A stretch of DNA of 64,000 nt from an uncultured Prevotellaceae bacterium (GTDB taxonomy: Bacteria > Bacteroidota > Bacteroidia > Bacteroidales > Bacteroidaceae), in NCBI GenBank assembly GCA_900320565.1, contig ONSR01000004.1, forward strand, positions 9,647 through 73,646, given 5' to 3'. The position numbers and the translations under genes are program-made. This document shows, in pieces, positions 11,158 to 58,461 of this stretch. Every line of letters starts with the position of its first letter. The stretch's first letter is position 1. The notes beneath the pieces are model-generated. The model ran no database searches. It was not told the origin of the DNA and was given only the letters and a program-made list of their open reading frames with translations.

Positions 11158-12651
11158 ATGGCAATAAGTGAAGATTTAGGTGCCCTAATCAGGGAGAACT
11201 TCGACCATAAACCGACGAAAGAGCAGGAAAAAGCAATCATTTTGCTTGCCGACTTTTTGCTTTCAAGAGAGCGTGATACGGTTTTCCTCCTGAAAGGATA
11301 TGCCGGCACGGGCAAGACTTCTCTGCTGGCAGCCTTGGTGCGGACGCTCGGTATGTTGCAGCAAAGGGTCATGTTGCTTGCCCCAACCGGCAGGGCAGCC
11401 AAGGTGTTGTCGTCCTACGCGGGCGTTCCAGCATACACTATACACAGGAAGATCTACCGCCAGAAGTCTATCACGGACATGGATGTCTTTCAGAACGATG
11501 TCAACCTTAGGCAGGATACTCTGTTCATCGTAGATGAGGCGTCGATGATTGCGAATGATGCCCACGACACAACCGTCTTTGGTACTGGCCGTTTGCTCGA
11601 CGATTTGATGCACTACGTCTATTCCTGCGAGGGCTGCCGACTCGTGCTGGTGGGCGACACGGCACAGCTTCCGCCGGTCGGCGAGGAAGAGAGTCCGGCC
11701 CTGAGCCGCACGATGCTTGAGGGTTATGGGATGGAAGTGACGGAACTCCAGCTGACCCAAGTTGTCCGTCAACTCGAGGAGTCCGGCATTCTTTGGAACG
11801 CCACGATGCTGCGAAGCCTCATCCAGAACGACGAGATGTTCGAGTTTCCCAAGCTCAGAGGCAAGACCTTCCCCGACGTCAAAGCACTCCCCGGCGATGA
11901 ACTCATCGAGGCGCTCGAGCAGAGTTACCGTAAGTACGGAACCGACGGAACGATAGTCGTGACCCGAAGCAACAAGCGTGCCAATATATATAATAATGGT
12001 ATAAGAGCCCGCATCCTCGACCACGAAGAGGAACTCTCCAGCGGCGACCTGATTATGGTGGCGAAGAATAATTATTATTGGAATGACCGAGAACAGCAGC
12101 AAGGGGCAAGGGGCAAGGAGCAAGAGAACAGCAATCCTCTTGCCCCCTGCCCCTTGCCCCTTGCCCCTTTCTCCTTCATCGCCAACGGCGACATCGCGGT
12201 GGTTCGCCGACTTCGAAACGAGAGGTCGTTCTACGGATTCCGTTTCGCCGACGCCATCCTTGAGTTTCCCGACTACGACAACCGCGAGATGGAGGTCACC
12301 GTCCTGCTCGACACCCTGCAGAGCGAAGCGCCTGCCCTTACCCGACAACAGCAGGAAGCGCTCTTCCAGGGCGTTTGGGAGGACTATCCCGAACTGACGA
12401 ACCGACGCGACAGGATGAAGAAATTGCGCCAAGACCCCTACTACAACGCCCTGCAAATCAAGTATGCCTATGCCGTGACCTGTCATAAGGCTCAGGGCGG
12501 ACAATGGGAGCACGTCTATATCGACCAAGGTTACATCACCGAGGAGATGCTCACGCCCGACTATTTCCGCTGGCTCTACACAGCCATCACCCGCGCTACC
12601 GAACAGGTCTATCTCGTCAACTGGCCCGACTCGGCACTTTCCGACGCCTAA
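11158..12651 (+). CDS. RecD/Pif1-like ATP-dependent DNA helicase
   Basis: GYAGTGKT (Walker A), LFIVDEASMI (Walker B), VLVGDTAQLPPV, AVTCHKAQGGQWEHVYI. Confidence 0.85.
   Translation: MAISEDLGALIRENFDHKPTKEQEKAIILLADFLLSRERDTVFLLKGYAGTGKTSLLAALVRTLGMLQQRVMLLAPTGRAAKVLSSYAGVPAYTIHRKIYRQKSITDMDVFQNDVNLRQDTLFIVDEASMIANDAHDTTVFGTGRLLDDLMHYVYSCEGCRLVLVGDTAQLPPVGEEESPALSRTMLEGYGMEVTELQLTQVVRQLEESGILWNATMLRSLIQNDEMFEFPKLRGKTFPDVKALPGDELIEALEQSYRKYGTDGTIVVTRSNKRANIYNNGIRARILDHEEELSSGDLIMVAKNNYYWNDREQQQGARGKEQENSNPLAPCPLPLAPFSFIANGDIAVVRRLRNERSFYGFRFADAILEFPDYDNREMEVTVLLDTLQSEAPALTRQQQEALFQGVWEDYPELTNRRDRMKKLRQDPYYNALQIKYAYAVTCHKAQGGQWEHVYIDQGYITEEMLTPDYFRWLYTAITRATEQVYLVNWPDSALSDA
12096..12170. repeat. 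inverted heptamer arms (gcaaggg)n / (ccccttg)n inside the helicase gene
   Basis: Left arm 12099-12126 and right arm 12137-12167 are near-perfect reverse complements. Confidence 0.9.
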
Positions 12652-12693
12652 CCAGACGGGTCTCGTCACAAAAATTGACACGTCATCTTCGTT

Positions 12694-12759
12694 GCATATA
12701 CATGTATGTGCAATTGCATGTACATGTATATGCAATTGCAAGTACATGTACGTGCAATA
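12694..12759. repeat. 22-bp phased palindromic array, TACATGTA/TGCAATTGCA family (3 units)
   Basis: gcatatacatgtatgtgcaatt / gcatgtacatgtatatgcaatt / gcaagtacatgtacgtgcaata. A sister array lies at 32336-32401. Confidence 0.9.
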
Positions 12760-12876
12760 AACTTCCCCTGTCAAGTCGGATGCGACATCCTGCCGGAAGC
12801 GGTCATGAAATGTCGTTCCTTTACAAACAAAGGCAAAAAAATCGGCCCACATGATAGAAGTTACGGATATTTTTGC

Positions 12877-12911: not shown

Positions 12912-13883
12912 ATGAATATACTCGTTACAGGAGCGAACGGACAGTTGGGCAACGAGATGCGCATCGTGGCTAAGGACTCGGCGGACCATTACATCTTCAC
13001 CGACGTCACTCAGCAAGAAGGCGCAGAGACCACGTTCCTCGACATCACCGACCTCGACGCCATCCGCGCGATGGTCAAGGAGAACGACGTCCGCGCCATC
13101 GTAAACTGTGCCGCGTGGACTAACGTCGATGCAGCCGAGGCTCCCGAGAATCGTGCGCTCGTCGAGAAGCTCAATGCGACAGCCCCCGAGAACCTGGCTC
13201 GCGCCATGAAGGAAGTGGGCGGTTGGCTCGTGCAGATATCGACCGACTACGTGTTCGGCAAGGAGCCTTACAACACGCCTTGTCGCCCCGACCAGCAGGG
13301 CACACCGACCGGCGTCTATGGCGAAACGAAGAAGATGGGAGAGGAGCGAATCCAAAAAGTATTTAATGAAAAATTAAAAATTAAAAGTGAAAAATTAATA
13401 GCAAGCGAGGCAGAAGGTTCAATGGTCAATGGTCAATGGTCAATGGTCAATGGCGGCTACATCATCATCCGCACGGCCTGGCTCTACAGTGAATACGGCA
13501 AGAACTTCTGCAAGACGATGCTCAACCTCACGGCCACCAAGCCGCAGCTCAAGGTTGTCTTCGATCAATGCGGCACTCCGACGTATGCCCTCGACCTGGC
13601 ACGCGCGATACAAGTCATCCTCCAGAAGCCCGTGCAAGGCATCTACCACTTCTCGAACGAAGGCGTCTGCTCGTGGTACGACTTCACGCAGATGATTGCC
13701 CGCATCGCCGGACACAAGGACTGCGACATCCAGCCCTGCCTGTCTTCGGAATATCCAAGTCCCGTGAAGCGTCCCGCCTACTCCGTCCTCGACAAACGCA
13801 GCATCCGGGAAACCTTCGGCATCGAGGTTCCGTACTGGGTCGATTCACTCGAAAAATGCATTAAGAACATCATTGAAAATTGA
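12912..13883 (+). CDS. rfbD: dTDP-4-dehydrorhamnose reductase
   Basis: MNILVTGANGQLG start, YGETK, IIRTAWLYS. Carries a roughly 33-codon repeat insertion. Confidence 0.9.
   Translation: MNILVTGANGQLGNEMRIVAKDSADHYIFTDVTQQEGAETTFLDITDLDAIRAMVKENDVRAIVNCAAWTNVDAAEAPENRALVEKLNATAPENLARAMKEVGGWLVQISTDYVFGKEPYNTPCRPDQQGTPTGVYGETKKMGEERIQKVFNEKLKIKSEKLIASEAEGSMVNGQWSMVNGGYIIIRTAWLYSEYGKNFCKTMLNLTATKPQLKVVFDQCGTPTYALDLARAIQVILQKPVQGIYHFSNEGVCSWYDFTQMIARIAGHKDCDIQPCLSSEYPSPVKRPAYSVLDKRSIRETFGIEVPYWVDSLEKCIKNIIEN
13368..13453. repeat. mosaic element in rfbD: (aaaaatt)-type arm + spacer + (aatggtc)x4.7 arm
   Basis: gaaaaattaaaaattaaaagtgaaaaattaata ... aatggtcaatggtcaatggtcaatggtcaatgg. Confidence 0.9.
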
Positions 13884-13963
13884 AGATTGAACATTGAACA
13901 TTATTCCGACCCGAAGACTTAGGGCGCAGCCCAATGGTCAATGGTCAATGGTCAATGTTCAAT
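13872..13963. repeat. hairpin-type heptamer element across the rfbD stop and the rfbD-rfbC spacer
   Basis: Left arm attgaaa attgaag attgaac attgaac att, a 30-nt GC-rich spacer, right arm aatggtc x3 aatgttc aat. Confidence 0.9.
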
Positions 13964-13975: not shown

Positions 13976-14536
13976 ATGGAAGTAATTAAGACCGCCATCG
14001 AAGGCGTACTTATCATAGAACCACGCATCTTCAGGGATGCACGCGGGTACTTCTTCGAATCATTCTCGCAAAGGGAGTTCGAAGAGAAAGTCGGCCCCAT
14101 CAACTTTGTACAAGATAACGAAAGCATGTCCTCTTATGGGGTGATGCGCGGACTGCACTTCCAGCGCCCACCCTACACGCAGAGCAAACTCGTTCGCTGC
14201 GTCAGGGGAGCCGTTCTGGACGTAGCCGTCGATATCCGCAAAGGGTCTCCGACCTACGGACAGCACGTCGCCGTCGAACTCACAGAAGAGAATCATCGTC
14301 AGTTCTTCATTTCGAAAGGCTTCGCCCATGGTTTTGCCGTACTGAGCGAGACTGCCGTCTTCCAGTACAAATGCGATGAGTTCTACCATCCCGAGGCAGA
14401 CGACGGTATCGCCATAACAGACCTAAGCCTCGGCATCGACTGGCGAATCCCCATGGAGAAGGCAATCCTGAGCGAAAAAGACACTAAGCATATTAACCTG
14501 AAGGACTTCGAAAGTCCGTTCACAGACCCTCTCTAA
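13976..14536 (+). CDS. rfbC: dTDP-4-dehydrorhamnose 3,5-epimerase
   Basis: FRDARGYFFESF, MRGLHFQ, KLVRCVRGAVLDVAVDIR. The track start at 13934 lies inside a heptamer array, so I trimmed it to MEVIKT. Confidence 0.9.
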   Translation: MEVIKTAIEGVLIIEPRIFRDARGYFFESFSQREFEEKVGPINFVQDNESMSSYGVMRGLHFQRPPYTQSKLVRCVRGAVLDVAVDIRKGSPTYGQHVAVELTEENHRQFFISKGFAHGFAVLSETAVFQYKCDEFYHPEADDGIAITDLSLGIDWRIPMEKAILSEKDTKHINLKDFESPFTDPL

Positions 14537-14555
14537 CTCCCCCTTAAAGGGGGAG
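14524..14555. repeat. left arm of the CCCCCTTAAAGGGGG palindromic element flanking the DUF559 gene
   Basis: agaccctctctaactcccccttaaagggggag is identical to 27911-27942. Confidence 0.9.
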
Positions 14556-14572
14556 AACACAGGCTGAAAACA

Positions 14573-14938
14573 ATGAAATGGCAAACGGCAGACACAATAG
14601 AATATGAACTTCTAAAAAGCCATTCAAAGGCAAAACGCGGCAATCAGACAGAAGCAGAGTCTGTTTTCTGGCAAATGGCGAAAGGCAGCGGACTAGGACA
14701 AAAGTGCAGAAGACAATACATTATCGGAGAGTATATCGTTGACTTCTTCTTTCGGCAATCAATGCTAATAGTGGAAATAGACGGAGGATACCACTTCACA
14801 GAAGAACAACAAAAGGAGGACATAACGAGACAAAACTGGTTGGAGCAAAAAGGATATAAAGTTCTGCGGTTCACCAACGAACAAGTCTTATATGACACAG
14901 ACAATATGATTAACGAATTAAAAAAGCATCTAATCTAA
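14573..14938 (+). CDS. DUF559 (Vsr-like endonuclease fold) protein
   Basis: YIVDFFF...LIVEIDGGYH...GYKVLRFTN pattern of DUF559. A/T-rich third codon positions, unlike the flanking rfb genes. Confidence 0.8.
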   Translation: MKWQTADTIEYELLKSHSKAKRGNQTEAESVFWQMAKGSGLGQKCRRQYIIGEYIVDFFFRQSMLIVEIDGGYHFTEEQQKEDITRQNWLEQKGYKVLRFTNEQVLYDTDNMINELKKHLI

Positions 14939-14939
14939 T

Positions 14940-16115
14940 ATGAGTAACAACAGTTCATCCCCCTTTAAGGGGGACAGAGGGGGTCTCAACATCGTCATAA
15001 CTGGTGGAGCCGGTTTCATCGGCAGTCACGTAGTACGCCTCTTTGTCAACAAGTACCCCGAATACAAGATCATCAACCTCGACAAGTTGACCTACGCAGG
15101 CAACCTCGCCAACCTCAAGGACATCGAGGACAAGCCCAACTACAAGTTCGTGAAGATGGACATCTGCGACTTCGACGCCTTCTACAAACTGATGCAGGAC
15201 GAGAAGATAGACGGCATCATCCACCTCGCAGCAGAGAGTCACGTGGACCGCAGCATCAAAGACCCCTTCACCTTTGCTCGCACGAATGTGATGGGAACAC
15301 TCTCCCTCCTGCAAGCTGCCAAGCTCTATTGGGAAAGCCTGCCAGAGCGGTACGAAGGCAAACGCTTCTATCACATCTCGACCGACGAGGTGTACGGCGC
15401 TCTGGAGATGACCAACCCGGAAGGCATAAAACCGCCTTTCACCACGACAGCCAGCAGTTCGGAGCATCATCTGGCATATGGCAAGGACTTCTTCTACGAG
15501 ACAACGAAGTACCAGCCACACAGTCCGTACTCCGCTTCGAAAGCCTCCAGCGACCACTTTGTCCGCGCTTTCCACGACACTTACGGCATGCCGACCATCG
15601 TCACGAACTGCTCCAACAACTACGGCCCCTATCAGTTCCCCGAGAAACTGATTCCTCTCTTCATCAACAACATACGCCATCGCAAGCCTCTTCCCGTTTA
15701 TGGTAAGGGCGAGAACGTGCGCGACTGGCTCTACGTCGAAGACCACGCTCGTGCCATCGACACGATCTTCCACAAGGGACAGATTGCCGAGACGTACAAC
15801 ATCGGCGGCTTCAACGAGTGGAAGAACATTGATATCATCAAGACTGTCATCAATACAGTTGACCGTTTGCTTGGCCGTCCAGAAGGAGCCGACATGGACC
15901 TCATCACATACGTCACAGACAGGCTTGGTCACGACGCACGCTACGCCATCGACTCCACCAAGCTGCAAAAGGAACTTGGATGGGAGCCGTCGCTCCAGTT
16001 CGAAGAGGGCATCGAAAAGACCGTCAAGTGGTACCTCGAGAACGAGGCTTGGATGGACAACATCACAAGCGGCGACTACGAGAAGTACTACGAGGAGATG
16101 TACAAGAATCGCTAA
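14940..16115 (+). CDS. rfbB: dTDP-glucose 4,6-dehydratase
   Basis: ITGGAGFIGSH, YSASKASSD and the long Bacteroidota-type form. The first roughly 16 codons are encoded by a repeat arm. Confidence 0.9.
   Translation: MSNNSSSPFKGDRGGLNIVITGGAGFIGSHVVRLFVNKYPEYKIINLDKLTYAGNLANLKDIEDKPNYKFVKMDICDFDAFYKLMQDEKIDGIIHLAAESHVDRSIKDPFTFARTNVMGTLSLLQAAKLYWESLPERYEGKRFYHISTDEVYGALEMTNPEGIKPPFTTTASSSEHHLAYGKDFFYETTKYQPHSPYSASKASSDHFVRAFHDTYGMPTIVTNCSNNYGPYQFPEKLIPLFINNIRHRKPLPVYGKGENVRDWLYVEDHARAIDTIFHKGQIAETYNIGGFNEWKNIDIIKTVINTVDRLLGRPEGADMDLITYVTDRLGHDARYAIDSTKLQKELGWEPSLQFEEGIEKTVKWYLENEAWMDNITSGDYEKYYEEMYKNR
14958..14986. repeat. right (inverted) arm of the element flanking the DUF559 gene
   Basis: tccccctttaagggggacagagggggtct is an imperfect reverse complement of the left arm. 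Confidence 0.85.
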
Positions 16116-17130: not shown

Positions 17131-19812
17131 TTATGCTGTGAGAAGCTCGATGAGTTTCTCGACGGCAGCATGTATGCCATCGGTGTTCTTGCCACCAGCT
17201 GTGGCGAAGTGAGGCTGGCCGCCGCCACCGCCTTGCATCAGTTGAGCAGCCTCGCGAATGTTCTTGCCGACGTTCACACCTGCTGCGACGGCACTATCCG
17301 AAGCTGCCGCCGTGAGCAAAGGCTTGCCGCCAGCAACGGAACCAATCACTACGATACTGTTCTCCACCTCTGCCCGGAGTTGGAAGGCAATGTCCTTAAC
17401 GAACTCCGGACCAAGTGGTGTGATAGCCTTCAAGACCTTGAAGCCGTTCACTTCCGTCTGCTTGGAGAGTATCTCTTTCTTGAGTTCAGCAGCCCTTTCG
17501 TGCATGATGTCTTCCACTTGCTTCTTGAGGTCAGCATTATCGTTGATGGCCTTCTGGATAGTTCCAACCAAGTCGGGAGCGTTATTGAAGAGCCCTCGCA
17601 GACCCGTTATCATGTCCTGCAACTTGTCCATCTGCTCTTCGACTGCCTTACCTGTTATGGCTTCGATACGACGCACACCTGCAGCCACACTGCTTTCCGA
17701 CATGATGCGAACCATACCGATGCAGCCTGTACTGCTTGCATGACAACCGCCGCAGAACTCGACACTCGTGCCGAACTGGATGACGCGCACCTTGTCGCCG
17801 TACTTCTCTCCGAAGAGGGCGATAGCGCCCAGCTTCTTGGCTTCCTCAATCGGCGTATCGCGATATTCCTGAAGAGGCAGGTTCTGACGGATGCGCTCAT
17901 TCACGAGGTGCTCCACCTCACGCAGCTGTTCGGGCGTCACCTTCTCGAAGTGAGAGAAGTCGAAGCGCAGGTAGTCGGGCGTCACAAGCGAGCCTTTCTG
18001 CTCCACATGGTCGCCGAGAACCTCCTTGAGGGCTTGGTCGAGGAGGTGCGTACAAGTGTGGTTGGCCTCGATAGCACGGCGACGCTCCACATCCACGCAA
18101 GCCATGAACTCGGCTTCAGGATTGCTTGGGATGCGCTCCAGCAAGTGAACACTTACGCCATTCTCTTTCTTGGTGTCAATCACCTTGATGGTCTCCTGCT
18201 CATTACAGATGACGCCTGAGTCGCCAACCTCGCCACCCATCTCTCCGTAGAAAGGAGTCTGGTCGAAGATTGCCTCGTAAACGACGCCTTTCTTCTGCTT
18301 CACCTCACGATACTTGACGATGTGGCAAGTGTATTCCGTGTAGTCGTAACCGACGAACTTCTGTTCTGATTGACCATTGACCATTGACGATTGACCATTA
18401 TTTTCTTCGGTGCCGGAATGGTCAATGGTCAATGATGAATGGTCAATGATGTGCCAATCGCCTGCCTCAACCTGGGCGGCATTGCGAGCACGCTCTTTCT
18501 GCTTCTGCATCTCAACGTTGAAGCCAGCCTCATCGACCGTTAGACCATTCTCGCGACAGATAAGTTCGGTGAGGTCCAAGGGGAAGCCATAGGTATCGAA
18601 AAGCGTGAAGGCTTTCTCGCCGGCAATCTCTGTCTTGCCTGCTGCCTTTGCCTCCTTCATCACACCATCCAGCAGTTTGATGCCTGTTTCGAGTGTGCGG
18701 AGGAAACTCTCTTCCTCTTCCTTCATCACTTTCGTAATGAGTTCCTTCTGACCTTCAAGTTCCGGATAGGTTGCTCCCATCTCCTGAATCAGGACGGGCA
18801 GCAGGCGGTAGATGAAGGCCTGCTTCTGTCCGAGGAAGGTATAGGCGTAGCGTACGGCGCGACGCAGAATGCGACGGATGACATAGCCGGCTTTTGCGTT
18901 GCCAGGAAGTTGACCGTCTGCGATGCTGAAAGCAATGGTGCGAAGATGGTCGGCCACTACTCTCATAGCCACATCGATGTCCTCCTTCTCGCCATAACGG
19001 AAGCCGCTGAGGTCGCCGATGGCTTTGATGATGGGCTGGAAGACGTCGGTATCGTAGTTGGACTGCTTGCCCTGAATGGCGCGAACCAAGCGTTCGAAGC
19101 CCATGCCGGTGTCGATAACGTTCATTCCAAGCGGTTCGAGATGTCCATCAGCCTTGCGCTCGTACTGCATGAAGACGATGTTCCAGATCTCGATAACCTG
19201 CGGGTCGTCCTTGTTGACGAGTTCGCGGCCAGGCACTTTAGCCTTTTCCTCAGCCGAACGACTATCGAGATGAATCTCCGAGCAAGGTCCGCAAGGACCT
19301 GTGTCGCCCATTTCCCAGAAGTTATCATGCTTGTTGCCGTTGATGATGTGGTCGGCCGGAACGTGCTTCAGCCAGTAGCCTGCAGCCTCATCATCGCGGA
19401 CAAGATTCTCTTCAGGACTGCCCTCGAAGACCGTCACATAGAGGTCCTTCGGGTCGAGCTTCAGCACATCAACGAGGTATTCCCACGCCATATCGATGGC
19501 TCCCTCCTTGAAATAGTCGCCGAACGACCAGTTGCCGAGCATCTCGAACATCGTGTGGTGATAGGTATCATGCCCGACTTCTTCCAGATCATTATGCTTT
19601 CCGCTGACACGCAGACACTTTTGGCTGTCCGCACGTCGGCGGGGTTCCGGGTCGCGAGTGCCAAGGATGATGTCCTTCCACTGGTTCATGCCGGCATTGG
19701 TAAACATCAGGGTCGGGTCATCCTTCACTACCATCGGGGCAGACGGAACAATCTTATGACCCTTCGACTCGAAGTACTTAAGGAACGAGTCGCGTATCTC
19801 ATTTGCTGTCAT
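17131..19812 (-). CDS. alaS: alanine--tRNA ligase
   Basis: [27 protein letters not shown] and the HTCTHLL editing motif. The first track ATG (19827) lies in a heptamer arm, so the second ATG is preferred. Confidence 0.95.
18369..18450. repeat. inverted heptamer arms (attgacc)n / (aatggtc)n inside alaS
   Basis: Arms at 18369-18399 and 18417-18450, separated by a 17-nt spacer. Confidence 0.9.
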
Positions 19813-20341: not shown

Positions 20342-20433
20342 CCCAGTTAAGTTGCCAAAGATAGCGTGTTAAGTTTGCAAAGATGGCACGTTAAGTTTGC
20401 AAAGATGGCACGTTAAGTTTGCAAGGATGGCGT
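20342..20433. repeat. 22-bp phased array, GCACG family (about 4 units)
   Basis: ...gcgtgttaagtttgcaaagatg / gcacgttaagtttgcaaagatg / gcacgttaagtttgcaaggatg. Confidence 0.9.
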
Positions 20434-20472
20434 GGGGCGTTTGACAACCATGCTGCACACGTCTTAAACAAT

Positions 20473-26523: not shown

Positions 26524-28184
26524 AATACACAATTCATAGTATCAGTGAAGGTTTTGCCTTCAAATGTAATAGCATAAGCGTGGAGCATCAGCCTTTCGCC
26601 AGGCTTGCCATAAAGTCTGTCGCCGAGTATCGGGTTGTTAAGTCCTTGTGGATGAGCGCAGTGAACGCGAAGCTGATGGGTGCGTCCGGTGATAGGACTG
26701 AGCTCGAGGAAAGCATGACCCTCCCTGTTTGCAAGGACTTTGTAATGTGTTTCGGCAGGCTTCCCATGCTCTCTATCCACCATCTGTCGAGGGCGGTCGT
26801 CGATATCGGGACGCAGAGGAAGGTTTATAGTTCCCTCTTGTCCGACAGGCATTTCCCTTTCGAGCAAGGCATGATAGACCTTGTGGATCTGTCGATGCAG
26901 GAAGAGGTCTTGCAACTTGTGGTACTTCTCTTCGGTCAACGCGACAAGCATCAAGCCACTTGTATCCATGTCGAGTCGATGCACAATGAGGGGGCCTTTT
27001 ACCGATGAAATGGCGCTTTTTATTGCATCTTGCACGTTTGGAAGGCCGTCCTTGCCTGGCACGGAAAGCATCCCTGCAGGCTTACTCACCACAGCCAACT
27101 CGCCATTATTATATATAATGTGTAGCTGAGCAAGCAGCTTCTCTTGGTCTGCAAGCAAAGGATTGGGTTCTACATCGAGCCCTTCGAGCATGTGCGTGAG
27201 GATGGGAAGGCATTTGCTTCGGCAAGCAGGATAGTAATGTCCGTCGAGTCTGACCTCATTTGTTGGCGAAGCTCCCACCCAGAACTCAGCCATACAAAGT
27301 GGTTGCAGACCTTCTTTATAAGCCGCTTGGAGCAATCGTGGTGCGCAACACTCCCCAGCCCCAGATGGTGGAATGGCTGGAGAGAAGAGGTTCAGCAACG
27401 ACTTCTCCTCGCCTCGTGCATTGAGGAAGGTGAACTGGCGGAACAACCATTGCTGCAAGGCGATGCTGCGCTCATGCCTTTCTTGCTGCAGCTGGTCTAT
27501 CTCTGCTTGTTGTTCTCGCAGATGGGCTTCATCATCAAACACACGTTGTTCCCAAGCTTGCCTCAGTCTGCGATACTCTGCCCTCTGGTGCTGGCTCTCT
27601 TTAATAAGGTTTTGTTTATTTTTTCCCAATTCATCGACAGAAATCGACTCTCGCTGAGCATCACGCATGGCCTTGCTTTGTCGCATAAACTCCCTGTAGG
27701 CTGCAAGTTCTTCGTCCATCTTCGCTCGCAAAGGGCTCGGGCTTAATGAACTCTCGAGATGTGCAATCCGACGATTGATGTCGCTGATGGCAGCCTCTTC
27801 CTCCTGGAAATAACAGCCCGGAGACATGAGGTCGAAGACTGGCGGAACGAAGTATTCGTGCTGGGTTTTGCCGTCAAGTGTGCCGGAGAAGGCAGCGAGA
27901 AACGAAAGCGAGACCCTCTCTAACTCCCCCTTAAAGGGGGAGGACACAGAATAAGAAGTCTCCCCTTTAAGGGGAGATTTAGAGGGGTCTACTATGAGTA
28001 CGCCGAGCATCTTTCCCTTTTGCAACTCGTCGTGCCACTCCTTTCGCTGACTGATATAGTGCTGCACCTCGTTTGCAGCGGCAACGCAGAGTGGGTGTGG
28101 TTCGTAGCAGAAGGGAAAGGTAAACTGCTTCGGAGCGTTTGTCGTCAGGACGCGAGGCGGTAAGGGATGTATAGTTACAGCCAT
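26520..28184 (-). CDS. RluA-family pseudouridine synthase, long form
   Basis: HRLDMDTSGLMLVA catalytic motif and HQLRVHCAH. Carries an 80-bp palindromic insertion. Confidence 0.8.
   Translation of the reverse strand: MAVTIHPLPPRVLTTNAPKQFTFPFCYEPHPLCVAAANEVQHYISQRKEWHDELQKGKMLGVLIVDPSKSPLKGETSYSVSSPFKGELERVSLSFLAAFSGTLDGKTQHEYFVPPVFDLMSPGCYFQEEEAAISDINRRIAHLESSLSPSPLRAKMDEELAAYREFMRQSKAMRDAQRESISVDELGKNKQNLIKESQHQRAEYRRLRQAWEQRVFDDEAHLREQQAEIDQLQQERHERSIALQQWLFRQFTFLNARGEEKSLLNLFSPAIPPSGAGECCAPRLLQAAYKEGLQPLCMAEFWVGASPTNEVRLDGHYYPACRSKCLPILTHMLEGLDVEPNPLLADQEKLLAQLHIIYNNGELAVVSKPAGMLSVPGKDGLPNVQDAIKSAISSVKGPLIVHRLDMDTSGLMLVALTEEKYHKLQDLFLHRQIHKVYHALLEREMPVGQEGTINLPLRPDIDDRPRQMVDREHGKPAETHYKVLANREGHAFLELSPITGRTHQLRVHCAHPQGLNNPILGDRLYGKPGERLMLHAYAITFEGKTFTDTMNCVL
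27911..27990. repeat. 80-bp palindromic element (CCCCCTTAAAGGGGG type) inside the rluA-family gene
   Basis: agaccctctctaactcccccttaaaggggga, a 17-nt loop, then tctcccctttaaggggagatttagaggggtct. Confidence 0.9.
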
Positions 28185-28732
28185 AGCACACCCTCCGGTC
28201 CCATATTAAAGAGCAAATCTACGATGCTGAGGTCGGGCAAGAACCCGTGTCGCGAAGCAAACATCTGGTAGTAGGGAGAATACTCTCTCCTGCCCTCCGT
28301 TAAAGGGGGAGCGTCCTCGAAAGCAATGGTTCGCGTAACGGGCTTCTCAATATCGAGCAGCGAGGCAACCAACATCATCAGTTCCTCGTTGAAATCGGCC
28401 ATGAAATCCCACTTCTTTTCGTAAAAAGGGGCGAATTCATCGGCATAATATTCAAAGAAAGGTGACTGCCTGTAGCTGCTCTCGAGGGCAACCCAATGCT
28501 GATGCCTCCAGTTGCCGTGATCGCTGATTCGCACGTCGCGCATCAAAGTCTTGCCTTCCATCTTCACAACAGGAACAGTGAGGGCAAGCGCTCCATTCGG
28601 GCTGTCTATCCAACAACGATTGCGAAGGGTTTGCTTCACGAAGTGGTCACAAACCTCGAGCCGCACTTCATCACTGCGATAGTAAGCGCTATAGTGAGAA
28701 ACAGGAGCGAGATAACAGCAAGGCAGAACCAT
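28175..28732 (-). CDS. WbqC family protein
   Basis: MVLPCCYLAPVSHYSAYY...HWVALESSYRQSPFFEYY pattern. Track ORF trimmed because it ran over lepB. Confidence 0.7.
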   Translation of the reverse strand: MVLPCCYLAPVSHYSAYYRSDEVRLEVCDHFVKQTLRNRCWIDSPNGALALTVPVVKMEGKTLMRDVRISDHGNWRHQHWVALESSYRQSPFFEYYADEFAPFYEKKWDFMADFNEELMMLVASLLDIEKPVTRTIAFEDAPPLTEGRREYSPYYQMFASRHGFLPDLSIVDLLFNMGPEGVLWL

Positions 28733-28790
28733 TGAACATTGACAATTGAAACATTGACCGTTTCTCCCCCTAAAGGGGGTTAGGGGGTCT
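28729..28790. repeat. composite element: heptamer arm + palindromic module, lepB-wbqC spacer
   Basis: ccattgaac attgaca attgaaa cattgacc, then tctccccctaaagggggttagggggtct. Confidence 0.8.
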
Positions 28791-32298: not shown

Positions 32299-32335
32299 CA
32301 TGGGGGATGAACAAACACGCCACGCAAAATTCTTT

Positions 32336-32401
32336 GCAGATACATGTATATGCAATTGCAAGTACATGTATGTGCAATTGCATATACATGTATGTGCAAT
32401 C
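32336..32401. repeat. 22-bp phased palindromic array, TACATGTA/TGCAATTGCA family (3 units)
   Basis: gcagatacatgtatatgcaatt / gcaagtacatgtatgtgcaatt / gcatatacatgtatgtgcaatc. Confidence 0.9.
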
Positions 32402-38900: not shown

Positions 38901-40241
38901 ATGGACACGAAACACATTCAAATACGCGACTACGACTACGCTTTGCCTGAAGACCGCATAGCGAAGTTCCCCTTGCCCGAGCGAGACAGCAGCAAATTGC
39001 TTGTCTATGAAGGTGGGAAGATTAGCGAGACTCAGTTCCGTTCCCTGCCTTCGTTGTTGCCCGAGGGCAGTTTGATGGTCTTCAACAATACGCGCGTCAT
39101 TCAGGCGAGACTGCATTTCAGGAAGAAGCCTCCCCAGCCCCCTTTAGGGGGAGACCTTCGTGCAGAGGAAATCGCAAATAGCAAATCGTCAAATAGTCAA
39201 TGCCTTGGGGCCCTCATCGAAATATTCCTTCTGGAGCCGGCCAACCCTGTGGAGTATCAGGAGAACTTCGCCAGAAAGGGAAGTTGCTCGTGGTATTGCC
39301 TCGTGGGCAACTCGAAGAAGTGGAAGGAAGGAGCCTTGACAAGGGAATTCAAAATTCAAAATTCAAAATTCAAACTCACGGCGGAGCGCATTGGAACACA
39401 TGGCACGAGCCAGGAAATCAGGTTCAATTGGGACGCTAACCTGACTTTCGCCGAAGTTATCGATACCGTCGGAGAACTTCCCATCCCGCCATATCTCAAC
39501 AGGAAGACTGAGGAGAGCGACAAGACAACCTACCAAACGGTCTATTCCAAGATAAAGGGTTCGGTAGCGGCTCCTACTGCAGGACTGCATTTCACGAAGC
39601 GCGTTCTGGCTGACATCGATGCGAAAGGCATCGAGCGAGAAGAAGTGACGCTTCATGTGGGCGCCGGAACATTCCGACCCGTCAAGAGTGAAGACATCGG
39701 CGGGCACGATATGCACACCGAACACATTGCCGTCCATCGCCACACCATCGAGCGAATCTTGGCTCATAATGGCGAGGCAATTGCCGTAGGAACCACCAGC
39801 GTCCGCACCCTCGAAAGCCTGTATTATATGGGAGTGCTGGCATGGCAAATGAAGAATGAAGAATTAAGAATGAAGAATGACGGGCGGGACGAAATCGTAA
39901 ATTGTAAATTGTCAAATTGTCAATCACTTCACGTTCCCCAGTGGATGCCATATGAGTACGACAACTCGCTCTCGACAATAGAGGCTCTCACTGCCCTACT
40001 CCGGTACATGGACGAGCGAGGCGAGGAGGTGATCCACTCCAGCACACAAATCATTATTGCCCCTGGCTACAAGTATCACATCGTACGTCGCATGATAACC
40101 AACTTCCACCAGCCGCAGAGCACACTGCTGCTGCTCGTCAGCGCCTTTATTGGTGATGCTTGGCACGACGTCTATGACTACGCCCTCAGCCACGACTTCC
40201 GCTTCCTCAGCTATGGTGACAGCTCGATGCTCGTGCCCTAG
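38901..40241 (+). CDS. queA: S-adenosylmethionine:tRNA ribosyltransferase-isomerase
   Basis: DYDYALPEDRIA, ELPIPPYL, VAAPTAGLHFT, VGTTSVRTLES, NFHQPQSTLLLLVSAF. At 446 aa it is lengthened by repeat insertions. Confidence 0.9.
   Translation: MDTKHIQIRDYDYALPEDRIAKFPLPERDSSKLLVYEGGKISETQFRSLPSLLPEGSLMVFNNTRVIQARLHFRKKPPQPPLGGDLRAEEIANSKSSNSQCLGALIEIFLLEPANPVEYQENFARKGSCSWYCLVGNSKKWKEGALTREFKIQNSKFKLTAERIGTHGTSQEIRFNWDANLTFAEVIDTVGELPIPPYLNRKTEESDKTTYQTVYSKIKGSVAAPTAGLHFTKRVLADIDAKGIEREEVTLHVGAGTFRPVKSEDIGGHDMHTEHIAVHRHTIERILAHNGEAIAVGTTSVRTLESLYYMGVLAWQMKNEELRMKNDGRDEIVNCKLSNCQSLHVPQWMPYEYDNSLSTIEALTALLRYMDERGEEVIHSSTQIIIAPGYKYHIVRRMITNFHQPQSTLLLLVSAFIGDAWHDVYDYALSHDFRFLSYGDSSMLVP
39135..39204. 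repeat. queA insertion 1: palindromic module + (aaatcgc/aaatagc)n arm
   Basis: cagccccctttagggggagacc ... aaatcgc aaatagc aaatcgt caaatag tcaatg. Confidence 0.85.
39346..39374. repeat. queA insertion 2: (aattcaa)x4
   Basis: aattcaa aattcaa aattcaa aattcaa a, encoding FKIQNSKFK. Confidence 0.85.
39849..39925. repeat. queA insertion 3: (gaatgaa)n arm + cgggcgggacg spacer + (aaattgt)n arm
   Basis: atgaagaatgaagaattaagaatgaagaatga cgggcgggacg aaatcgtaaattgtaaattgtcaaattgtcaatc. Confidence 0.9.
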
Positions 40242-40489: not shown

Positions 40490-43400
40490 ATGAAGACAAG
40501 ATTCATCCTCCTGATTGCCCTTTTCCTGCAACTCACTTCGCTGACGATGAAAGCCGACGAGCTGGAGGTTGTGACCACCCCAGTCGATGGCTGTTTTTCC
40601 ATTGCAGGAGCCACAACTGCCGACAAGGCCATCGTCCTCTACGATGCCAACGATGCTGAAGTGGTGACCACAGTAGCCGACTGCCTCCTCTCAGACCTGA
40701 AAGCGGTAACAGGAAAGACGTTCCAGAAGTACAAGACGGAGCCCACAACGCTCAAGAACCCCATCATCGTGGGCACTATCGGGCAGTCGAGTCACATCGA
40801 TCAGCTCATTGCACAAGGCAAGATAGACGTGAGCGACGTCGAAGGCAAATGGGAAGCCTTTGGCATGCAAGTTATTGACAATCCCATGGAAGGCGTGGCA
40901 AAAGCACTCGTCATCTTCGGCTCGCAACCTCGCGCAACAGCTTATGGAATGTTCGAACTCAGCCGTATGGCGGGTGTCTCGCCGTGGATATGGTGGGCAG
41001 ACGTCACACCTGCCAAGAAGACGAAGCTCTACGTGACGCCTGGCAGACGTGTCTTCGGTTCACCTTCAGTCAAGTTTCGTGGCATTTTTGTGAACGACGA
41101 GGACTGGGGCTTACGACCCTGGGGAGCAAGAAACCTCGACACGGAACTGGGCAACTTCGGTCCTAAGACCTACGCCGTCATCATGGAACTTCTGCTCCGC
41201 CTCAGGGCGAATACCCTTTGGCCGGCAATGCACCCGGGCTCAAGAGCGTTCTGGTATGAGAAGACGAACATCCCCCTCATCATGAAGTACGACATCTACA
41301 TGGGCTCCAGCCACTGCGAACAGATGCTCTGCAACAATGAATACGAGTGGGAACGCTTTGGAGGTCATCGCGACGAGGACTGGGTTTGGCATTCGAACAA
41401 AGAGATGATTATGCGCTACTGGGCTGCTCGCATCAGCGAAAGTAAAGACAGAAACGGCATCTATACGCTGGGCATGCGAGCCGTACACGACGCTGGAATG
41501 AACGGTTACAACACCCTCGAGGAGAAGGTCGCCGCGCTGACCGACATCATTGCACACCAGCGACAACTCATCGCAGACAGCATCGGCGACCCAACAACCG
41601 TGCCACAAATCTTCATCCCCTACAAGGAAGTACTCACTGCATACAATGCCGGTCTGCAAATACCCGAGGACGTCACGCTGATGTGGGTCGACGACAATCA
41701 CGGCTACATACGTCAGATGCCAACACCAGAAGAGCAGGCCCGTTCGGGCGGCAACGCCATATACTACCACCTCTCATATTGGGGCACGCCTGCCGGTTAT
41801 CTCTGGCTCAGCACCATCTCGCCCTCGCTTTGCAGCTACGAATTGAGCAAAGCCTATAGCCAAGGCATGCGAAACCAATGGATCATCAATGTGGGCGACA
41901 TCAAACCTGCCGAAGAAGAACTGGAGTTCTGCATGGACCTGGCCTGGGATATCAACAGCTGGCCCCCAGAGAAAGCACACAAATACACTCGGGCATGGGC
42001 AGCGAGAACCTTTGGAGAAGAGTATGCCGACGAAATCAGTGAGATAAAGATGGCTTACTACCGTCTTGGCATCGCCGCCAAGCCGGAGCACGTTCACCTC
42101 TGCTACTTCGACCACTCCAACGCACAAATAGATGCTCGCATCGCCGAGTATCAAGACATATATAATAAGGTAGTGGCGCTGCGCTCTCGTATCCCTTCCT
42201 CTCTCAGTAATGCCTACTACGAACTCATCGAATATCCCGTCCGTGGTTGTGCCGACCAGAACATCAAAATTCTCAGAGGACGACAGAGTTTCGTCTATGC
42301 CTGGGCAGGACAAGGCGAGAAGGCACTCTCATATTCGGCTGCCGCACAAGCGGCCTTCGACGAGATTGTCACGATGACCGACAAGTTCAACACTGGCATA
42401 GCCGGAGGCAAATGGAACTACATGATGAGCTACAAGCCGAACAACATGAGCCAGCACCTGATGCCGTCTGTCGCCTCGGCAGCCGACGTGTCCGAAACCG
42501 AAAGCACCATCGTCCAACCGGACATCACAATTCTCCCTGGAGGCAGCTACAGTAGTGCAAGCAGCAGCGTGGTCAGCCTGACGGGATTAGGTCTTGCCGG
42601 AAGCACAGCAACCGTCTGGCCCTTAGATCTGACTGCCTATACTTCTTGTTCACAGGCACCTTACGCAGAATACTCAATACCCGTGCAAAAAGGACTCAAC
42701 GTCATACAGGTGCGCTGCCTCCCGACCTTCCCACTCAACACGACATACGACCTGAGAGTCGGCATCTCGGTTGATGGCAAAACGCCCTCTGTCCTCTCTG
42801 TAAAGACAACAGCAATGACCACCCCTTGGGACGAAACCGTCGTGCAAGGATACATGCGTGCTGCCGTACATTACACCAGCATGAAGGACCAGACGGTGCC
42901 CGTTCGCGTCTATTTCATGGACCCAGGCTCCACCGTGTGTGCCATGGCAAGCATTCCATTCGGAAGCGATGCAGAAGACTTAACAACAACTCTTCTAACG
43001 AATGCAGACTTCGAATACAACTCCTCGGGAGCACTCAACCCACAAGGCAATATAGGGCGAGGCGTGCCTAAAGGCTGGACAGCGACTGGCAAGATGAAAG
43101 GCAACTCGTGGGGCGTCAACCAGGATGCCAAACAGATATACGGCATCAACACCTATTGGGCAACAAGCACACCTATGCCCGAAGTCTATGAGTTCTCACA
43201 AACCATTCCAGCCAGCAAGATAGAACCCGGCACATACCTGGTCAGTTGTCTGCTGGGTGTACTCAAGGACAAACTAGGCACCTGCCGTCTCTTCGCCAAT
43301 GACAAGGTTCAATACTACGGCAAGGAGAGCGATTATGTGTCAAGCGTCTTCACCTCTGGCGAAACGCAAACTTTTGCCAGCTATGTCGGTTCGGGCGATG

Positions 43401-43714
43401 GCAGGATGATTCTCAAGCCCATGGAAGTCATTGTGACCGTTACCGAAGGAGAAGACCTGAGTCTCGGCATCCGCACCAGCAACCATAGAGCCGACGGCTC
43501 ACGCGTCACCAGCAACAACCATGGATGCTTCAAGGTGGACCACTTCCGCATCCAACGCATCGATGCAGAAGACCCAACAAGCATAAAGAACCCTCTGTCG
43601 AAAGCAAGAGAGGGAGCCGTTTACGACTTGCGAGGTCGTATTATAACAAATGGCAGATTACCCAGCGGCATCTATATCAAAGATGGACGAAAAAAGCTTA
43701 TCATAAGAAAATAA
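40490..43714 (+). CDS. GH115 family glycoside hydrolase (alpha-glucuronidase-like) with T9SS C-terminal sorting domain
   Basis: Signal peptide, FRGIFVNDEDWGL, LRLRANTLWPAM. The tail VYDLRGRIITNGRLPSGIYIKDGRKKLIIRK is CTD-like. Confidence 0.8.
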   Translation: MKTRFILLIALFLQLTSLTMKADELEVVTTPVDGCFSIAGATTADKAIVLYDANDAEVVTTVADCLLSDLKAVTGKTFQKYKTEPTTLKNPIIVGTIGQSSHIDQLIAQGKIDVSDVEGKWEAFGMQVIDNPMEGVAKALVIFGSQPRATAYGMFELSRMAGVSPWIWWADVTPAKKTKLYVTPGRRVFGSPSVKFRGIFVNDEDWGLRPWGARNLDTELGNFGPKTYAVIMELLLRLRANTLWPAMHPGSRAFWYEKTNIPLIMKYDIYMGSSHCEQMLCNNEYEWERFGGHRDEDWVWHSNKEMIMRYWAARISESKDRNGIYTLGMRAVHDAGMNGYNTLEEKVAALTDIIAHQRQLIADSIGDPTTVPQIFIPYKEVLTAYNAGLQIPEDVTLMWVDDNHGYIRQMPTPEEQARSGGNAIYYHLSYWGTPAGYLWLSTISPSLCSYELSKAYSQGMRNQWIINVGDIKPAEEELEFCMDLAWDINSWPPEKAHKYTRAWAARTFGEEYADEISEIKMAYYRLGIAAKPEHVHLCYFDHSNAQIDARIAEYQDIYNKVVALRSRIPSSLSNAYYELIEYPVRGCADQNIKILRGRQSFVYAWAGQGEKALSYSAAAQAAFDEIVTMTDKFNTGIAGGKWNYMMSYKPNNMSQHLMPSVASAADVSETESTIVQPDITILPGGSYSSASSSVVSLTGLGLAGSTATVWPLDLTAYTSCSQAPYAEYSIPVQKGLNVIQVRCLPTFPLNTTYDLRVGISVDGKTPSVLSVKTTAMTTPWDETVVQGYMRAAVHYTSMKDQTVPVRVYFMDPGSTVCAMASIPFGSDAEDLTTTLLTNADFEYNSSGALNPQGNIGRGVPKGWTATGKMKGNSWGVNQDAKQIYGINTYWATSTPMPEVYEFSQTIPASKIEPGTYLVSCLLGVLKDKLGTCRLFANDKVQYYGKESDYVSSVFTSGETQTFASYVGSGDGRMILKPMEVIVTVTEGEDLSLGIRTSNHRADGSRVTSNNHGCFKVDHFRIQRIDAEDPTSIKNPLSKAREGAVYDLRGRIITNGRLPSGIYIKDGRKKLIIRK

Positions 43715-43735
43715 CACACATAAACAATAAGAATC

Positions 43736-46700: not shown

Positions 46701-46975
46701 AAATCGGCATCCGCTCAAGCAACTTCAAGGCCGACGGAACACGCTCCACAAACGACAGTCACGGTTGGTTCAAGGTGGACCATTTCCGCCTGCAACGCAT
46801 CGATGCGAAAGACGAAGCGACCTCGATGAGGGAAGATGTAAGAAGTAAGAGGGAAGAGGGGACTGTCACCCTCTACGACTTGCAAGGACGCATGCTCCCT
46901 TTTGGTTTATCCCGTCAGAACGGCCTGCTCATTATGCGTCGTCCTGACGGGAGCGTCATCAAGCTGGCCAAATAG
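43736..46975 (+). CDS. GH115 family glycoside hydrolase, tandem paralog, with T9SS C-terminal sorting domain
   Basis: Collinear with the upstream paralog along its full length (FRGIFLNDEDFGL, LRLRANTLWPAM). CTD-like tail LYDLQGRML... Confidence 0.8.
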   Translation: MKSKSLLSMLLMLFALAAKSDELQVVTSPVDGCFTIAGSVFSDKCIVLYDANDAEVVTTVTDCLLSDLKAVTKKTFQKYKTEPTSLKNPIIVGTIGQSSHIDQLIANGKLDVSGVRGKWEVFGMQVIDNPMEGVERALVIFGSQPRSTAYGMFHLSRMMGVSPWIWWADVTPTTKTQLYVTPGRYVSSTPSVKFRGIFLNDEDFGLQPWAKNKMEDASVKNIGPKTYAAIMELLLRLRANTLWPAMHACSRAFWDLKTNIPLIMKYDIYMGSSHCEQMLRDNEWEWNRYGGHYNDDWNWKTNREMVKRYWAERVGESRGKNAIYTLGMRGVHDTGINGYSSTAERVAALTDIIAYQRQLLADSIGDPTTIPQIFIPYKEVLDAYNAGLQVPEDVTLMWVDDNHGYIRQMPKPAEQARSGGNAVYYHLSYWGSPASYLWLSTISPSLCSYELSKAYDQGVRDQWIINVGDIKPAEEELEFCMDLAWDINSWTPQRAHLYTHDWAARTFGEEYADDINEIKMAYYRLGIAAKPEHVQLCHFDHSNEQVDARIAEYQDLYQKAVALRSRIPSALRNAYYELIEYPVCACADQNIKLLRARQSFVYAWAGQGEKALDYAQKAQNAFDEIVTLTNKYNNGIASGKWSGMMSYKPNNWSQHLMPAVATSSDVAEQQSTLLEPNITIVAGGSYTSASATVTTLEGLGIRGTTATVWPLDMRAYTTAGSAPYAEYTVPVRKGLNVIQVRCLPTFPINTTYDLRAGISVDGQTAQVISIKCSAMTDTWDETVALGYFPASVHYTSTEDKTVSVRVSFMDPGLCISAVASIPFSAGGEDLTDLLTNPDFEYGNSGNLNAQGSLTRGVPKGWTATGTMNGNSWGINQDAKHLYGINIYWASAKPMPNVYELSQTIPASKLGAGTYLVTCLLGTQKDKLANCRLFANKNVQYYGKESDYTASMLTSGETNTFAGYGPSGSGKMTLHPMAVMVTLKAGESLKIGIRSSNFKADGTRSTNDSHGWFKVDHFRLQRIDAKDEATSMREDVRSKREEGTVTLYDLQGRMLPFGLSRQNGLLIMRRPDGSVIKLAK

Positions 46976-58373: not shown

Positions 58374-58461
58374 GTAAAAATAATCGCACAAACAAATGTT
58401 TCCTTGTTAAAAAATGTGCAAGATGGCTTATTTTTCATATTCAGCCTGCATAAAGGAGCAA

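Follow-up and report, generated by a model that had tools for sequence, protein, structure and literature searches.

E. coli was recognized in the 1990s as carrying repeats of the BoxC/PIT/TM class (Bachellier 1990s; Hoyne & Maher 2000). BoxC, the PIT elements and TM_ECO are one and the same repeat, with 23 in K-12, 5 as inverted pairs, and a distribution across more than 260 genomes (PMC4666352). TM_ECO forms a triplex in vitro and is tied to local sequence variability, and the authors of that survey state that they never encountered mobility functions nearby (PMC4666352). The DUF559 protein family, repeat-associated enzymes and in-frame palindromic insertions are likewise already known, each of them separately. 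Here we describe a 463-bp cassette at positions 14524-14986 of a 64,000-nucleotide stretch of DNA from an uncultured Prevotellaceae bacterium (contig ONSR01000004.1; the whole stretch is called the window hereafter), in which a small DUF559 nuclease gene lies between two inverted arms at the junction of rmlC and rmlB. As judged from genome comparisons, the gene and its arms travel as a unit with the arm tips as its ends, and this unit has been gained, lost and exchanged independently of its flanks. On balance we consider it probable that the cassette belongs to a family of small selfish cassettes in Bacteroidales, spread by a nuclease acting on its arms together with copying by host repair.

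The initial annotation had pointed out that the 32-mer AGACCCTCTCTAACTCCCCCTTAAAGGGGGAG occurs at both 14524-14555 and 27911-27942. The two copies are exact and are the sole ones in the window at up to three mismatches, the number of further copies expected from 100 shuffles being 0. At the first position, a 17-nt spacer separates the left arm from a 366-nt open reading frame (ORF) that matches DUF559 (PF04480, E=2e-28); next come a 19-nt spacer and the inverted partner arm TCCCCCTTTAAGGGGGACAGAGGGGGTCT at 14958-14986, an arrangement that the initial annotation had described correctly. It had also placed the cassette at the rfbC-rfbB junction, and this too was borne out: Pfam identifies the neighbors as rmlC (PF00908) and rmlB (PF16363/PF01370), with rmlD further upstream. 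RmlC ends in ...TDPL* with its TAA inside the left arm, and RmlB starts at ATG 14940, one base past the DUF559 stop, and translates the right arm as MSNNSSSPFKGDRGGLNIVITGG (SSPFKGDRGGL). The A/T-rich third codon positions that had been remarked upon in DUF559 correspond to a third-position G+C content (GC3) of 0.43, as against 0.64-0.75 for the neighboring genes. The features of the cassette and its neighbors are given below, where L-numbers denote compared loci.

13976-14536, + strand: rmlC, dTDP-4-dehydrorhamnose 3,5-epimerase (PF00908, E=3.7e-72), its last codons and TAA in the left arm
14524-14536, + strand: outer block and second loop of the left arm (AGACCCTCTCTAA), a mirror ('third-strand') block with 7/8 triads, from the identical L023 arm
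14537-14555, + strand: left arm hairpin CTCCCCCT-TAA-AGGGGGAG (DNA fold -8.7 kcal/mol), the same as 27924-27942
14556-14572, + strand: 5' spacer of the cassette (AACACAGGCTGAAAACA), similar to the 17-nt spacer (GACACAGAATAAGAAGT) of the gene-less doublet described below
14573-14938, + strand: DUF559 nuclease gene, 121 amino acids (aa), Vsr-like PD-(D/E)XK fold (PF04480, E=2e-28)
14939-14957, + strand: 3' spacer with the rmlB start codon, ATG 14940
14940-16115, + strand: rmlB, dTDP-glucose 4,6-dehydratase, its first ~16 residues cassette-encoded (PF16363, PF01370)
14958-14974, + strand: right arm hairpin TCCCCCT-TTA-AGGGGGA, translated within the RmlB leader
14975-14986, + strand: second loop and outer mirror block of the right arm (CAGAGGGGGTCT), mirror symmetry 7/7, from the L023 right arm

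The window holds no second DUF559 gene, and its arms carry no intrinsic terminators on the + strand. An Rfam scan of 12-30 kb at E up to 1 returned no family for the arms and just chance microRNA matches on other palindromes, and viral contigs gave 0 matches to the arm. Two other interpretations of the structure were set aside: an integron cassette with attC sites, given the inverted, not direct, arms and the lack of a nearby integrase, and a G-quadruplex role for the G-rich arms, which have just two G-runs each in the window.

The association between arms and gene extends well beyond this junction. A DUF559 alignment scan with one genome per species and a 20-kb sample per genome gave 80 loci, mostly from rumen Prevotellaceae and other Bacteroidales; stand-alone ORFs of at most 165 aa were classed as small DUF559 genes, and arms were called at an inverted-repeat alignment score of at least 40. 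The initial annotation had proposed checking whether the DUF559 genes of the genome consistently carry arms; across species, inverted arms flank 38 of the 61 small DUF559 ORFs, with about 8 more showing weaker repeats, as against none of the 18 long DUF559 fusion proteins. The arm score was reached by 7 of 649 further ORFs, each of at least 100 aa, from these loci (Fisher p ~9e-40 relative to DUF559); of the seven, one belongs to another DUF559 cassette, four are situated between a pair of elements whose arms face outward, and two have unrelated repeats. Non-DUF559 ORFs enclosed by inward-facing arms numbered 0 of 648 in these loci. Moreover, protein identity and arm similarity are correlated (Mantel r = 0.48, a value reached by 0 of 999 permutations). 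The family occupies 32 unrelated genomic context clusters, with proteins 80-93% identical and like arms at unrelated sites, and in L066 two cassettes lie 4.5 kb apart on one contig.

These counts bear on the suggestion that gene and arms have no link through mobility, the arms being structure-forming and rearrangement-prone DNA near which a repair- or restriction-type nuclease has landed or been retained, or else elements acting on mRNA or expression. Such an account, which we regard as very doubtful, would fit the association of TM motifs with local genome variability in E. coli (PMC4666352), the inserts, different from strain to strain, at the rmlC|rmlB junction and in one rmlD loop, and the transcription that hairpins within an operon would undergo. 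It is opposed by the lack of any other ORF among those 648 enclosed in the same way, by the co-variation of the symmetric arm pair with the protein, by the fact that the arms accompany the gene to more than 30 unrelated sites, and by the missing terminator signal on the + strand.

A group of incomplete copies was also seen. At a junction upstream of a sugar-nucleotidyltransferase gene, L031-L033 and L036-L039 carry DUF559 with one or more left arms and no right arm, and their DUF559 ORFs are extended N-terminally through the arms (131-185 aa). These copies look like half-decayed or fixed cassettes.

Evidence for a discrete, movable unit comes from the rmlC|rmlB junction itself. The window DUF559 protein recurs unchanged on 22 independent contigs, which come from at least 8 samples, and each time it lies between rmlC and rmlB; homologues at 77-83% identity occupy the same junction with both arms present. 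Simple vertical inheritance, which this would suggest, is contradicted by incongruent synonymous divergence (dS) and by an empty site. Between the window and L011, dS is 0.05 for rmlC, 0.22 for rmlB and 0.95 for DUF559, while between the window and L023 the corresponding values are 0.72, 0.54 and 0.00. The window/L023 alignment contains 1 mismatch over 14516-14995, and this block stops 8-9 nt outside the arm tips; the flanks are 11-23% divergent, and the adjoining 43-44 nt on each side 20-23%. An empty rfbC-rfbB site in relatives, which the initial annotation had suggested seeking, is present in L133, whose RmlC and RmlB are 98.9% and 99.7% identical to those of the window. The L133 junction measures 21 nt (...TTCACAGACC-TTATATAATTATGAAA-CTCAACATCG...), of which the cassette replaces 16 nt, and its genes end and begin differently, RmlC with ...TDLI* and RmlB with MKLNIVITGG. 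The sequences AGACC, the first five bases of the left arm, and CT, the last two of the right arm, are common to both alleles, so the inserted material is slightly shorter than the arm-to-arm span. In L111, a 154-bp remnant at rmlC|rmlB keeps approximately the first 20 DUF559 codons. A different situation is seen in L157 (2870-3043), where this junction carries an unrelated 175-nt insert with inverted repeats of its own (cacgaattgcacgaattacac ... gtgtaattcgagcaattcgtag); the junction therefore accepts several element types.

The same comparisons weigh upon the idea of a domesticated host nuclease resembling the RAYT-REP/REPIN systems, in which a vertically inherited DUF559 protein would maintain, process or disperse repeats that serve the host. 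The layout is RAYT-like, with a gene between two inverted units alongside dispersed doublets and singlets; the order rmlC-DUF559-rmlB is kept across species down to 50-83% protein identity (including L040); the protein is under purifying selection, and ycjD, the DUF559 gene of E. coli, is single-copy. We nevertheless judge domestication improbable, because divergence is incongruent with the flanks, a near-identical background has an empty site, several copies with the same arms are found in some genomes and contigs, GC3 lies far below that of host genes, and the doublets are situated in coding sequences and not extragenically. That the pattern arose by chance or through faulty assembly is scarcely credible: most of the material does consist of metagenome assemblies, and the arms are repeats, yet 0 chance matches are expected, the independent contigs and samples noted above agree, and the pattern recurs in dozens of species and in finished E. 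coli genomes.

The cassettes are closely fitted to the operons in which they reside. In 36 of 47, both neighbors are co-oriented with DUF559 and the downstream ATG lies inside the cassette. The upstream gene ends at or in the left arm, and the downstream ATG often overlaps the DUF559 stop as ATGA; translation of the downstream gene continues across the right arm and places a leader of ~16-26 aa (for example MNNK..TTPLPHREGQGGGS) ahead of the usual N-terminus. Pfam matches indicate complete genes on both sides at argG|argC, leuA|leuC, speA|argB, leuCD|leuA and the alpha|beta junction of 2-oxoacid:ferredoxin oxidoreductase (OFOR). Cassettes are therefore found at gene junctions, leaving the genes on either side unsplit, and a 'fractured gene' interpretation is ruled out. 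With a stop codon, a start codon and a leader supplied by the cassette, the operon keeps working.

The second copy of the 32-mer belongs to an element that has arms and no gene. As the initial annotation had stated, arm, 17-nt loop and inverted partner together form an 80-bp element within an rluA-family gene. The gene-less units in the window are as follows.

27911-27990, + strand: gene-less doublet, 80 bp, two inverted arms around a 17-nt spacer, within the reading frame of a minus-strand RluA-family gene
28764-28790, + strand: solitary right-arm-type unit (CTCCCCCTAAAGGGGGTTAGGGGGTCT), adjoining a heptamer-repeat run
39130-39156, strand undefined: degenerate solitary arm, inside the 87-nt in-frame variable segment 39120-39206

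The 80-nt doublet folds as a single long DNA hairpin (-24.9 kcal/mol, z = -5.5). Its host gene is a 554-aa minus-strand ORF, the C-terminal half of which is an RluA-family pseudouridine synthase, and the doublet is read through in frame. In BLAST comparisons with ~120 other copies, homology begins at 27911 and stops at 27990. The same 20-kb loci that hold the cassettes also contain gene-less arm doublets of 80-200 bp that retain sequence homologous to the 5' and 3' spacers of the cassette, and the doublets thus look like gene-less derivatives of it. A metagenome scan with the left arm of the window yielded at least 120 loci, at least 126 instances and at least 112 distinct 30-nt contexts; among the matches listed, 112 of 126 instances are doublets of at most 130 bp, 2 are full cassettes at rmlC|rmlB and 1 is the L111 remnant. 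A stop-free frame through the element and 150 nt on each side is present in 100 of the 108 testable doublets listed, compared with 358 of 540 random windows (p = 3e-9), and the lengths of 86 of the 108 listed fall in one residue class modulo 3 (p = 7e-23). Both biases would be expected if only frame-preserving copies survive. Among the doublets listed, the left arm of the window pairs with at least 4 right-arm types, so the arm is a modular unit.

Two side observations concern these gene-less units. Some doublets show a partial direct duplication of their own terminal 15-18 nt, at the left end in L104, L115, L118, L123 and L153 (agaccctctctaactcc-a-agaccctctctaactccccc...) and at the right end in L024, L025, L121 and L129 (...ggtttggaagggtct-ggaggtttagagggttct), which may be the footprint of an insertion or copying mechanism. 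The segment 39120-39206 combines the degenerate arm with AAATCGN heptamers in a gene coding ...RVIQARLHFRK...; here L110 has 21 nt and L174 a third, different insert.

Structural comparison of the arms places them in a described class of repeats. From its outer end inward, each arm runs through a C-rich block and a 1-5-nt loop to a C-rich stem, which a 2-5-nt loop joins to the complementary G-rich stem; the sequences vary between loci, and the architecture is common to all. The outer block mirrors the stem, such that 93% of positions across 73 arms are triads allowed in a purine-motif triplex. At least 85% compatible triads are found in 68 of the 73 arms, whereas shuffled outer blocks average 65% and 10.6% of them reach 85%. 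The window arms, with 7/8 and 7/7 compatible triads, show the three-block arrangement by which BoxC/PIT/TM elements are recognized. Furthermore, the outer block co-varies with the stem between families: CCCCTCCCT occurs with ACCCACCCC, TCTCCCT with ACCCTCT, and TCCCCCT with ACCCCCT. The initial annotation had called the arms palindromic; the inverted layout holds, while the plain palindrome gives way to a three-block motif of mirror plus hairpin. The TM_ECO consensus, CCCTCNCCC-N3-6-GGGNGAGGG-N3-GGGNGAGGG, is unmatched by the window arms (CTCCCCCT-TAA-AGGGGGAG, third block GAGAGGGTC), and the arm families of L051/L061/L071 and of the enterobacterial loci come near to it. By predicted architecture, then, the window arms are members of the BoxC/PIT/TM intrastrand-triplex class, of another sequence family.

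The enclosed protein has the features of a nuclease. Residues 15-119 match the DUF559 profile (Pfam PF04480) with 98.8 bits against a cut-off of 20.6 (E=2e-28). The score with the YcjD equivalog model, NCBIfam PRK09767, is 51.5 bits, below its 218-bit cut-off, so the protein is a DUF559 member and not a YcjD ortholog. The nearest solved relative by sequence is the DUF559 protein 3hrl from N. gonorrhoeae (E=2.4e-14). An AlphaFold model of the window protein (pLDDT, the predicted local distance difference test score, 74; residues 1-23 poorly predicted) was matched by Foldseek to 3hrl (E=8e-7) and to the catalytic domain of I-Bth0305I (3r3p, E=2e-4), with target-normalized TM-scores of 0.84 and 0.76; sequence similarity to I-Bth0305I is marginal (E = 0.08). 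E. coli Vsr is a distant structural match only (E=0.05, TM-score 0.44-0.57 in Foldseek), and the Vsr family profile PF03852 gave no match in the Pfam scan. D57, E68, D70 and H74, the putative catalytic residues, do not vary across the small homologues (62 of 62), and a dN/dS of 0.06-0.12 indicates purifying selection. PADLOC returned weak domain-level matches only (DpdF 2e-7, methyl-directed REase 1.5e-6, homing endonuclease 2e-3), with no partner genes present.

We infer that DUF559 acts on the arms. In the mechanism that we propose, the nuclease, probably as a dimer, would recognize its cognate arm in the form of a duplex palindrome or of an extruded hairpin or triplex, and would nick or cut there. 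Host repair would then copy the unit, with or without the ORF, from another arm-bearing site. Sites that have no arms may be reached through microhomology-type joining rather than transposase strand transfer, which would explain the lack of a target duplication, the replaced target bases and the shared AGACC/CT. For the doublets, a preference for targets with an A-rich 5' flank and for AGACC microhomology is suspected.

The main rival is a homing-type parasite, in which the doublets spread by other means and a free-standing DUF559 endonuclease cuts doublets or rival alleles, is copied in by repair with the arms serving as portable homology, and survives only where a doublet sits at a gene junction. 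We consider this unlikely, with the RAYT-like domesticated and the non-mobile roles less likely still. The fold is nearest to that of I-Bth0305I, a Vsr-like homing endonuclease, and there are documented examples of free-standing genes for Vsr-like homing endonucleases that have hairpins upstream and split or adjoin genes (PMC2677866). Homing would also accommodate the presence/absence polymorphism and the alleles of 81% and 99.7% nucleotide identity at one junction, the identity block that stops at the arms, as expected with crossovers inside them, and the one or few cassettes per genome sample against many doublets. However, the empty L133 junction is without any arms, so arrival there cannot be homing into a doublet. 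Flank co-conversion is absent between the window and L023, arms and protein change in step between families, a pattern that suits recognition of the arms as such, and the spread of the doublets is left unexplained.

Several points weigh against the selfish-cassette interpretation that we prefer. Approximately one quarter of the small DUF559 genes have one arm or none, and the match of nuclease to repeat population in each genome rests on the 20-kb samples. A 121-aa hydrolytic PD-(D/E)XK nuclease cannot by itself join DNA. No target-site duplication is visible at the cassette, at the doublets or in the few filled/empty pairs, and the filled/empty junctions are untidy, with the 16 nt replaced at rmlC|rmlB and ~4 nt at L193/L209. 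The existence of at least 4 right-arm types per left arm A means that the arms may recombine or move independently of any single nuclease. Finally, nearly all of the comparison sequences are metagenome assemblies, in which repeats can cause chimeric joins, and this matters most for the single L023 comparison. In the long gene-carrying and short gene-less copies the initial annotation had seen the relationship expected of an autonomous element and its derivatives, or of a homing-type nuclease. What stands of this is a recurrent discrete unit with short copies that look like its derivatives; DUF559 is a candidate for the mover of the short copies, although no target-site duplication was seen and the protein is a hydrolytic nuclease rather than a transposase.

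Beyond Bacteroidales, TM-type motifs lie within ~170 nt of the gene ends at all the proteobacterial DUF559 loci examined, E. coli included. In E. coli K-12, the stop codon of ycjD is overlapped by a degenerate TM, and a complete TM_ECO follows ~160 nt downstream. TM_ECO no. 9, between fabI and ycjD, has been listed without comment (Holder et al. 2015, PMC4666352). Such motifs are also found at the DUF559 genes of Enterobacter asburiae, Klebsiella quasipneumoniae, Pseudomonas rhizoryzae and four other proteobacterial contigs, in unrelated contexts; their stems are 9-10 long with at most one incompatible triad, and they lie within ~60 nt of the gene ends or over them. The mirror block faces towards the gene in the proteobacterial loci and outward in Prevotellaceae. 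Two side observations belong here. In L223 (NC_000913.3 1351040-1351830), where the full TM_ECO lies 154 nt beyond the degenerate TM, the 3' end of ycjD is duplicated between the two, and a perfect 17-bp hairpin overlaps the GTG start. In two type I restriction-modification loci, L234 and L235, one and the same DUF559 gene, flanked by inverted TM-type arms, immediately precedes hsdR; the two contigs stem from one sample and differ in their upstream genes.

Phylogroups A, B1 and C are reported to carry ycjD, whose place is taken in B2, D, E and F by the eefRABCD efflux operon (PMC12817139). The gene is single-copy in E. coli and present in 3378 of 5426 complete genomes, and the TM_ECO repeat occupies a median of 17 places per E. 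coli genome. Published TM_ECO counts are as follows.

K-12 MG1655, 23; 55989, 29; IAI1, 29; W, 30
CFT073, 2; UTI89, 1; IHE3034, 1; JJ1886, 1
O157:H7 Sakai, 11; IAI39, 6

With the strains assigned to the phylogroups and sequence types (STs) to which we take them to belong, the counts are 19-30 in ycjD lineages as against 1-2 in B2 strains. This correlation between TM_ECO count and ycjD presence is consistent with YcjD being the enzyme of these repeats and is confounded by phylogeny. We suggest, tentatively and as something short of likely, that DUF559 nucleases are the cognate enzymes of BoxC/PIT/TM repeats across phyla, E. coli YcjD among them, and that cutting at the motif would drive repeat dispersal, the formation of gene-carrying cassettes and the instability of TM sites. 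Our literature search found no paper linking DUF559 to palindromic, REP, MITE (miniature inverted-repeat transposable element) or triplex repeats.

The window contains further repeats. Tracts of 7-nt units, either (AATGGTC)n or A/T-rich heptamers, occur at 13365-13470 (in rmlD), 13924-13963, 18368-18447 (in alaS), 28723-28754 and 58910-58941, and in-frame translation through them gives peptides such as SMVNGQWSMVNG. In the rmlD loop the window has an 87-nt heptamer insert, other strains an 87-90-nt triplex-type doublet or another hairpin, and L015 and L026 nothing; this loop of a housekeeping enzyme is hypervariable and a hot spot for insertions that preserve the frame. Arrays of short palindromes with a 22-nt period (TTGCATGTACATGTATATGCAA, CCCCTATAGGGGA...) are intergenic, at 12670-12774, 20346-20453, 32334-32400, 46987-47096, 52160-52241 and 58445-58548, and gave chance microRNA matches only in Rfam. 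An inverted repeat with 28-nt arms (GCAAGGGGCAAGGGGCAAGGAGCAAGAG / CTCTTGCCCCCTGCCCCTTGCCCCTTGC) lies at 12099-12164, in frame in a PIF1/RecD-like helicase gene (11158-12651). Two tandem ~3.24-kb segments at 40554-46813, 71-81% identical, are probably a paralogous gene pair.

The BoxC/PIT/TM repeats have long been without an enzyme, an origin or a means of spread, as the 2015 survey says explicitly (PMC4666352), and a nuclease gene that is systematically enclosed by them, co-varies with them and moves with them is a concrete candidate. The corresponding E. coli candidate, ycjD, is directly testable. If DUF559 nucleases are indeed the cognate enzymes, they would define a new class of mobile DNA that combines a restriction-fold nuclease with host repair and has no transposase. 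The finding also extends the RAYT/REPIN concept, in which a repeat family is served by an enzyme of its own, to a second and unrelated protein fold. A selfish cassette of this kind is built to do no harm inside operons, since stop codon, start codon and leader peptide all come with it. It also offers an explanation for in-frame palindromic insertions in housekeeping proteins such as those known from Rickettsia. More practically, length differences between strains in the core proteins of rumen Prevotellaceae find an explanation in the arms and doublets, which are also likely to break or mis-join metagenome assemblies.

Set against described systems, the cassette combines features that have been seen apart. 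Like a parent insertion sequence (IS) and its MITEs, the family has long gene-carrying and short gene-less copies with common terminal inverted repeats, and a deletion intermediate is seen in L111. However, its sole ORF is DUF559 and no transposase of a known IS family is present, and in place of a target-site duplication the junctions show replaced bases and microhomology. The Rickettsia palindromic elements (RPEs) are likewise short palindromic elements in protein genes, read in frame and tolerated in housekeeping proteins; they belong to a different sequence family and host phylum, and here a gene-carrying version exists, whereas we know of no enzyme gene associated with RPEs.

The parallels with enzyme-bearing systems are closer. 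As in the REP/REPIN-RAYT systems, a small gene lies between two inverted hairpin units, gene-less doublets and singlets are scattered, and each gene variant goes with its own repeat variant. The cassette protein is, however, a PD-(D/E)XK (Vsr-like) hydrolase, in contrast to the Y1/HUH enzyme of RAYT, which is able to cut and rejoin. Cassette-type doublets are intragenic and frame-preserving (100/108 of those listed read through), whereas REPINs are extragenic, and unlike RAYT the cassette is neither strictly single-copy nor strictly vertical, given the dS incongruence, the empty L133 and the two copies on L066. With I-Bth0305I and the 'fractured gene' homing endonucleases the cassette shares the catalytic fold and a small stand-alone gene wedged between host coding regions; in the latter group, too, hairpins adjoin the ORF and a few residues are added to neighboring host ORFs (PMC2677866). 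Presence/absence at a fixed site, with L133 empty and the window, L011 and L023 filled, likewise recalls a free-standing homing endonuclease. Yet the cassette gene is enclosed by inverted repeats that exist by the hundreds without it, it sits between complete genes instead of splitting one, and no co-conversion tracts were seen with L023.

The nearest likeness is to the BoxC/PIT/TM_ECO repeats themselves. These have the same C-rich stem, G-rich stem and second G-rich mirror block as the cassette arms, and they are dispersed, often in inverted pairs, and linked to local sequence variability, as are the repeats of the window. The window arms differ in reading CTCCCCC/GGGGGAG in place of CCCTCNCCC/GGGNGAGGG, and repeats of their type are mostly inside genes and in frame, whereas TM_ECO has been reported to be always intergenic (PMC4666352). 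Above all, no gene had previously been tied to BoxC/TM, and here the motifs enclose a nuclease gene.

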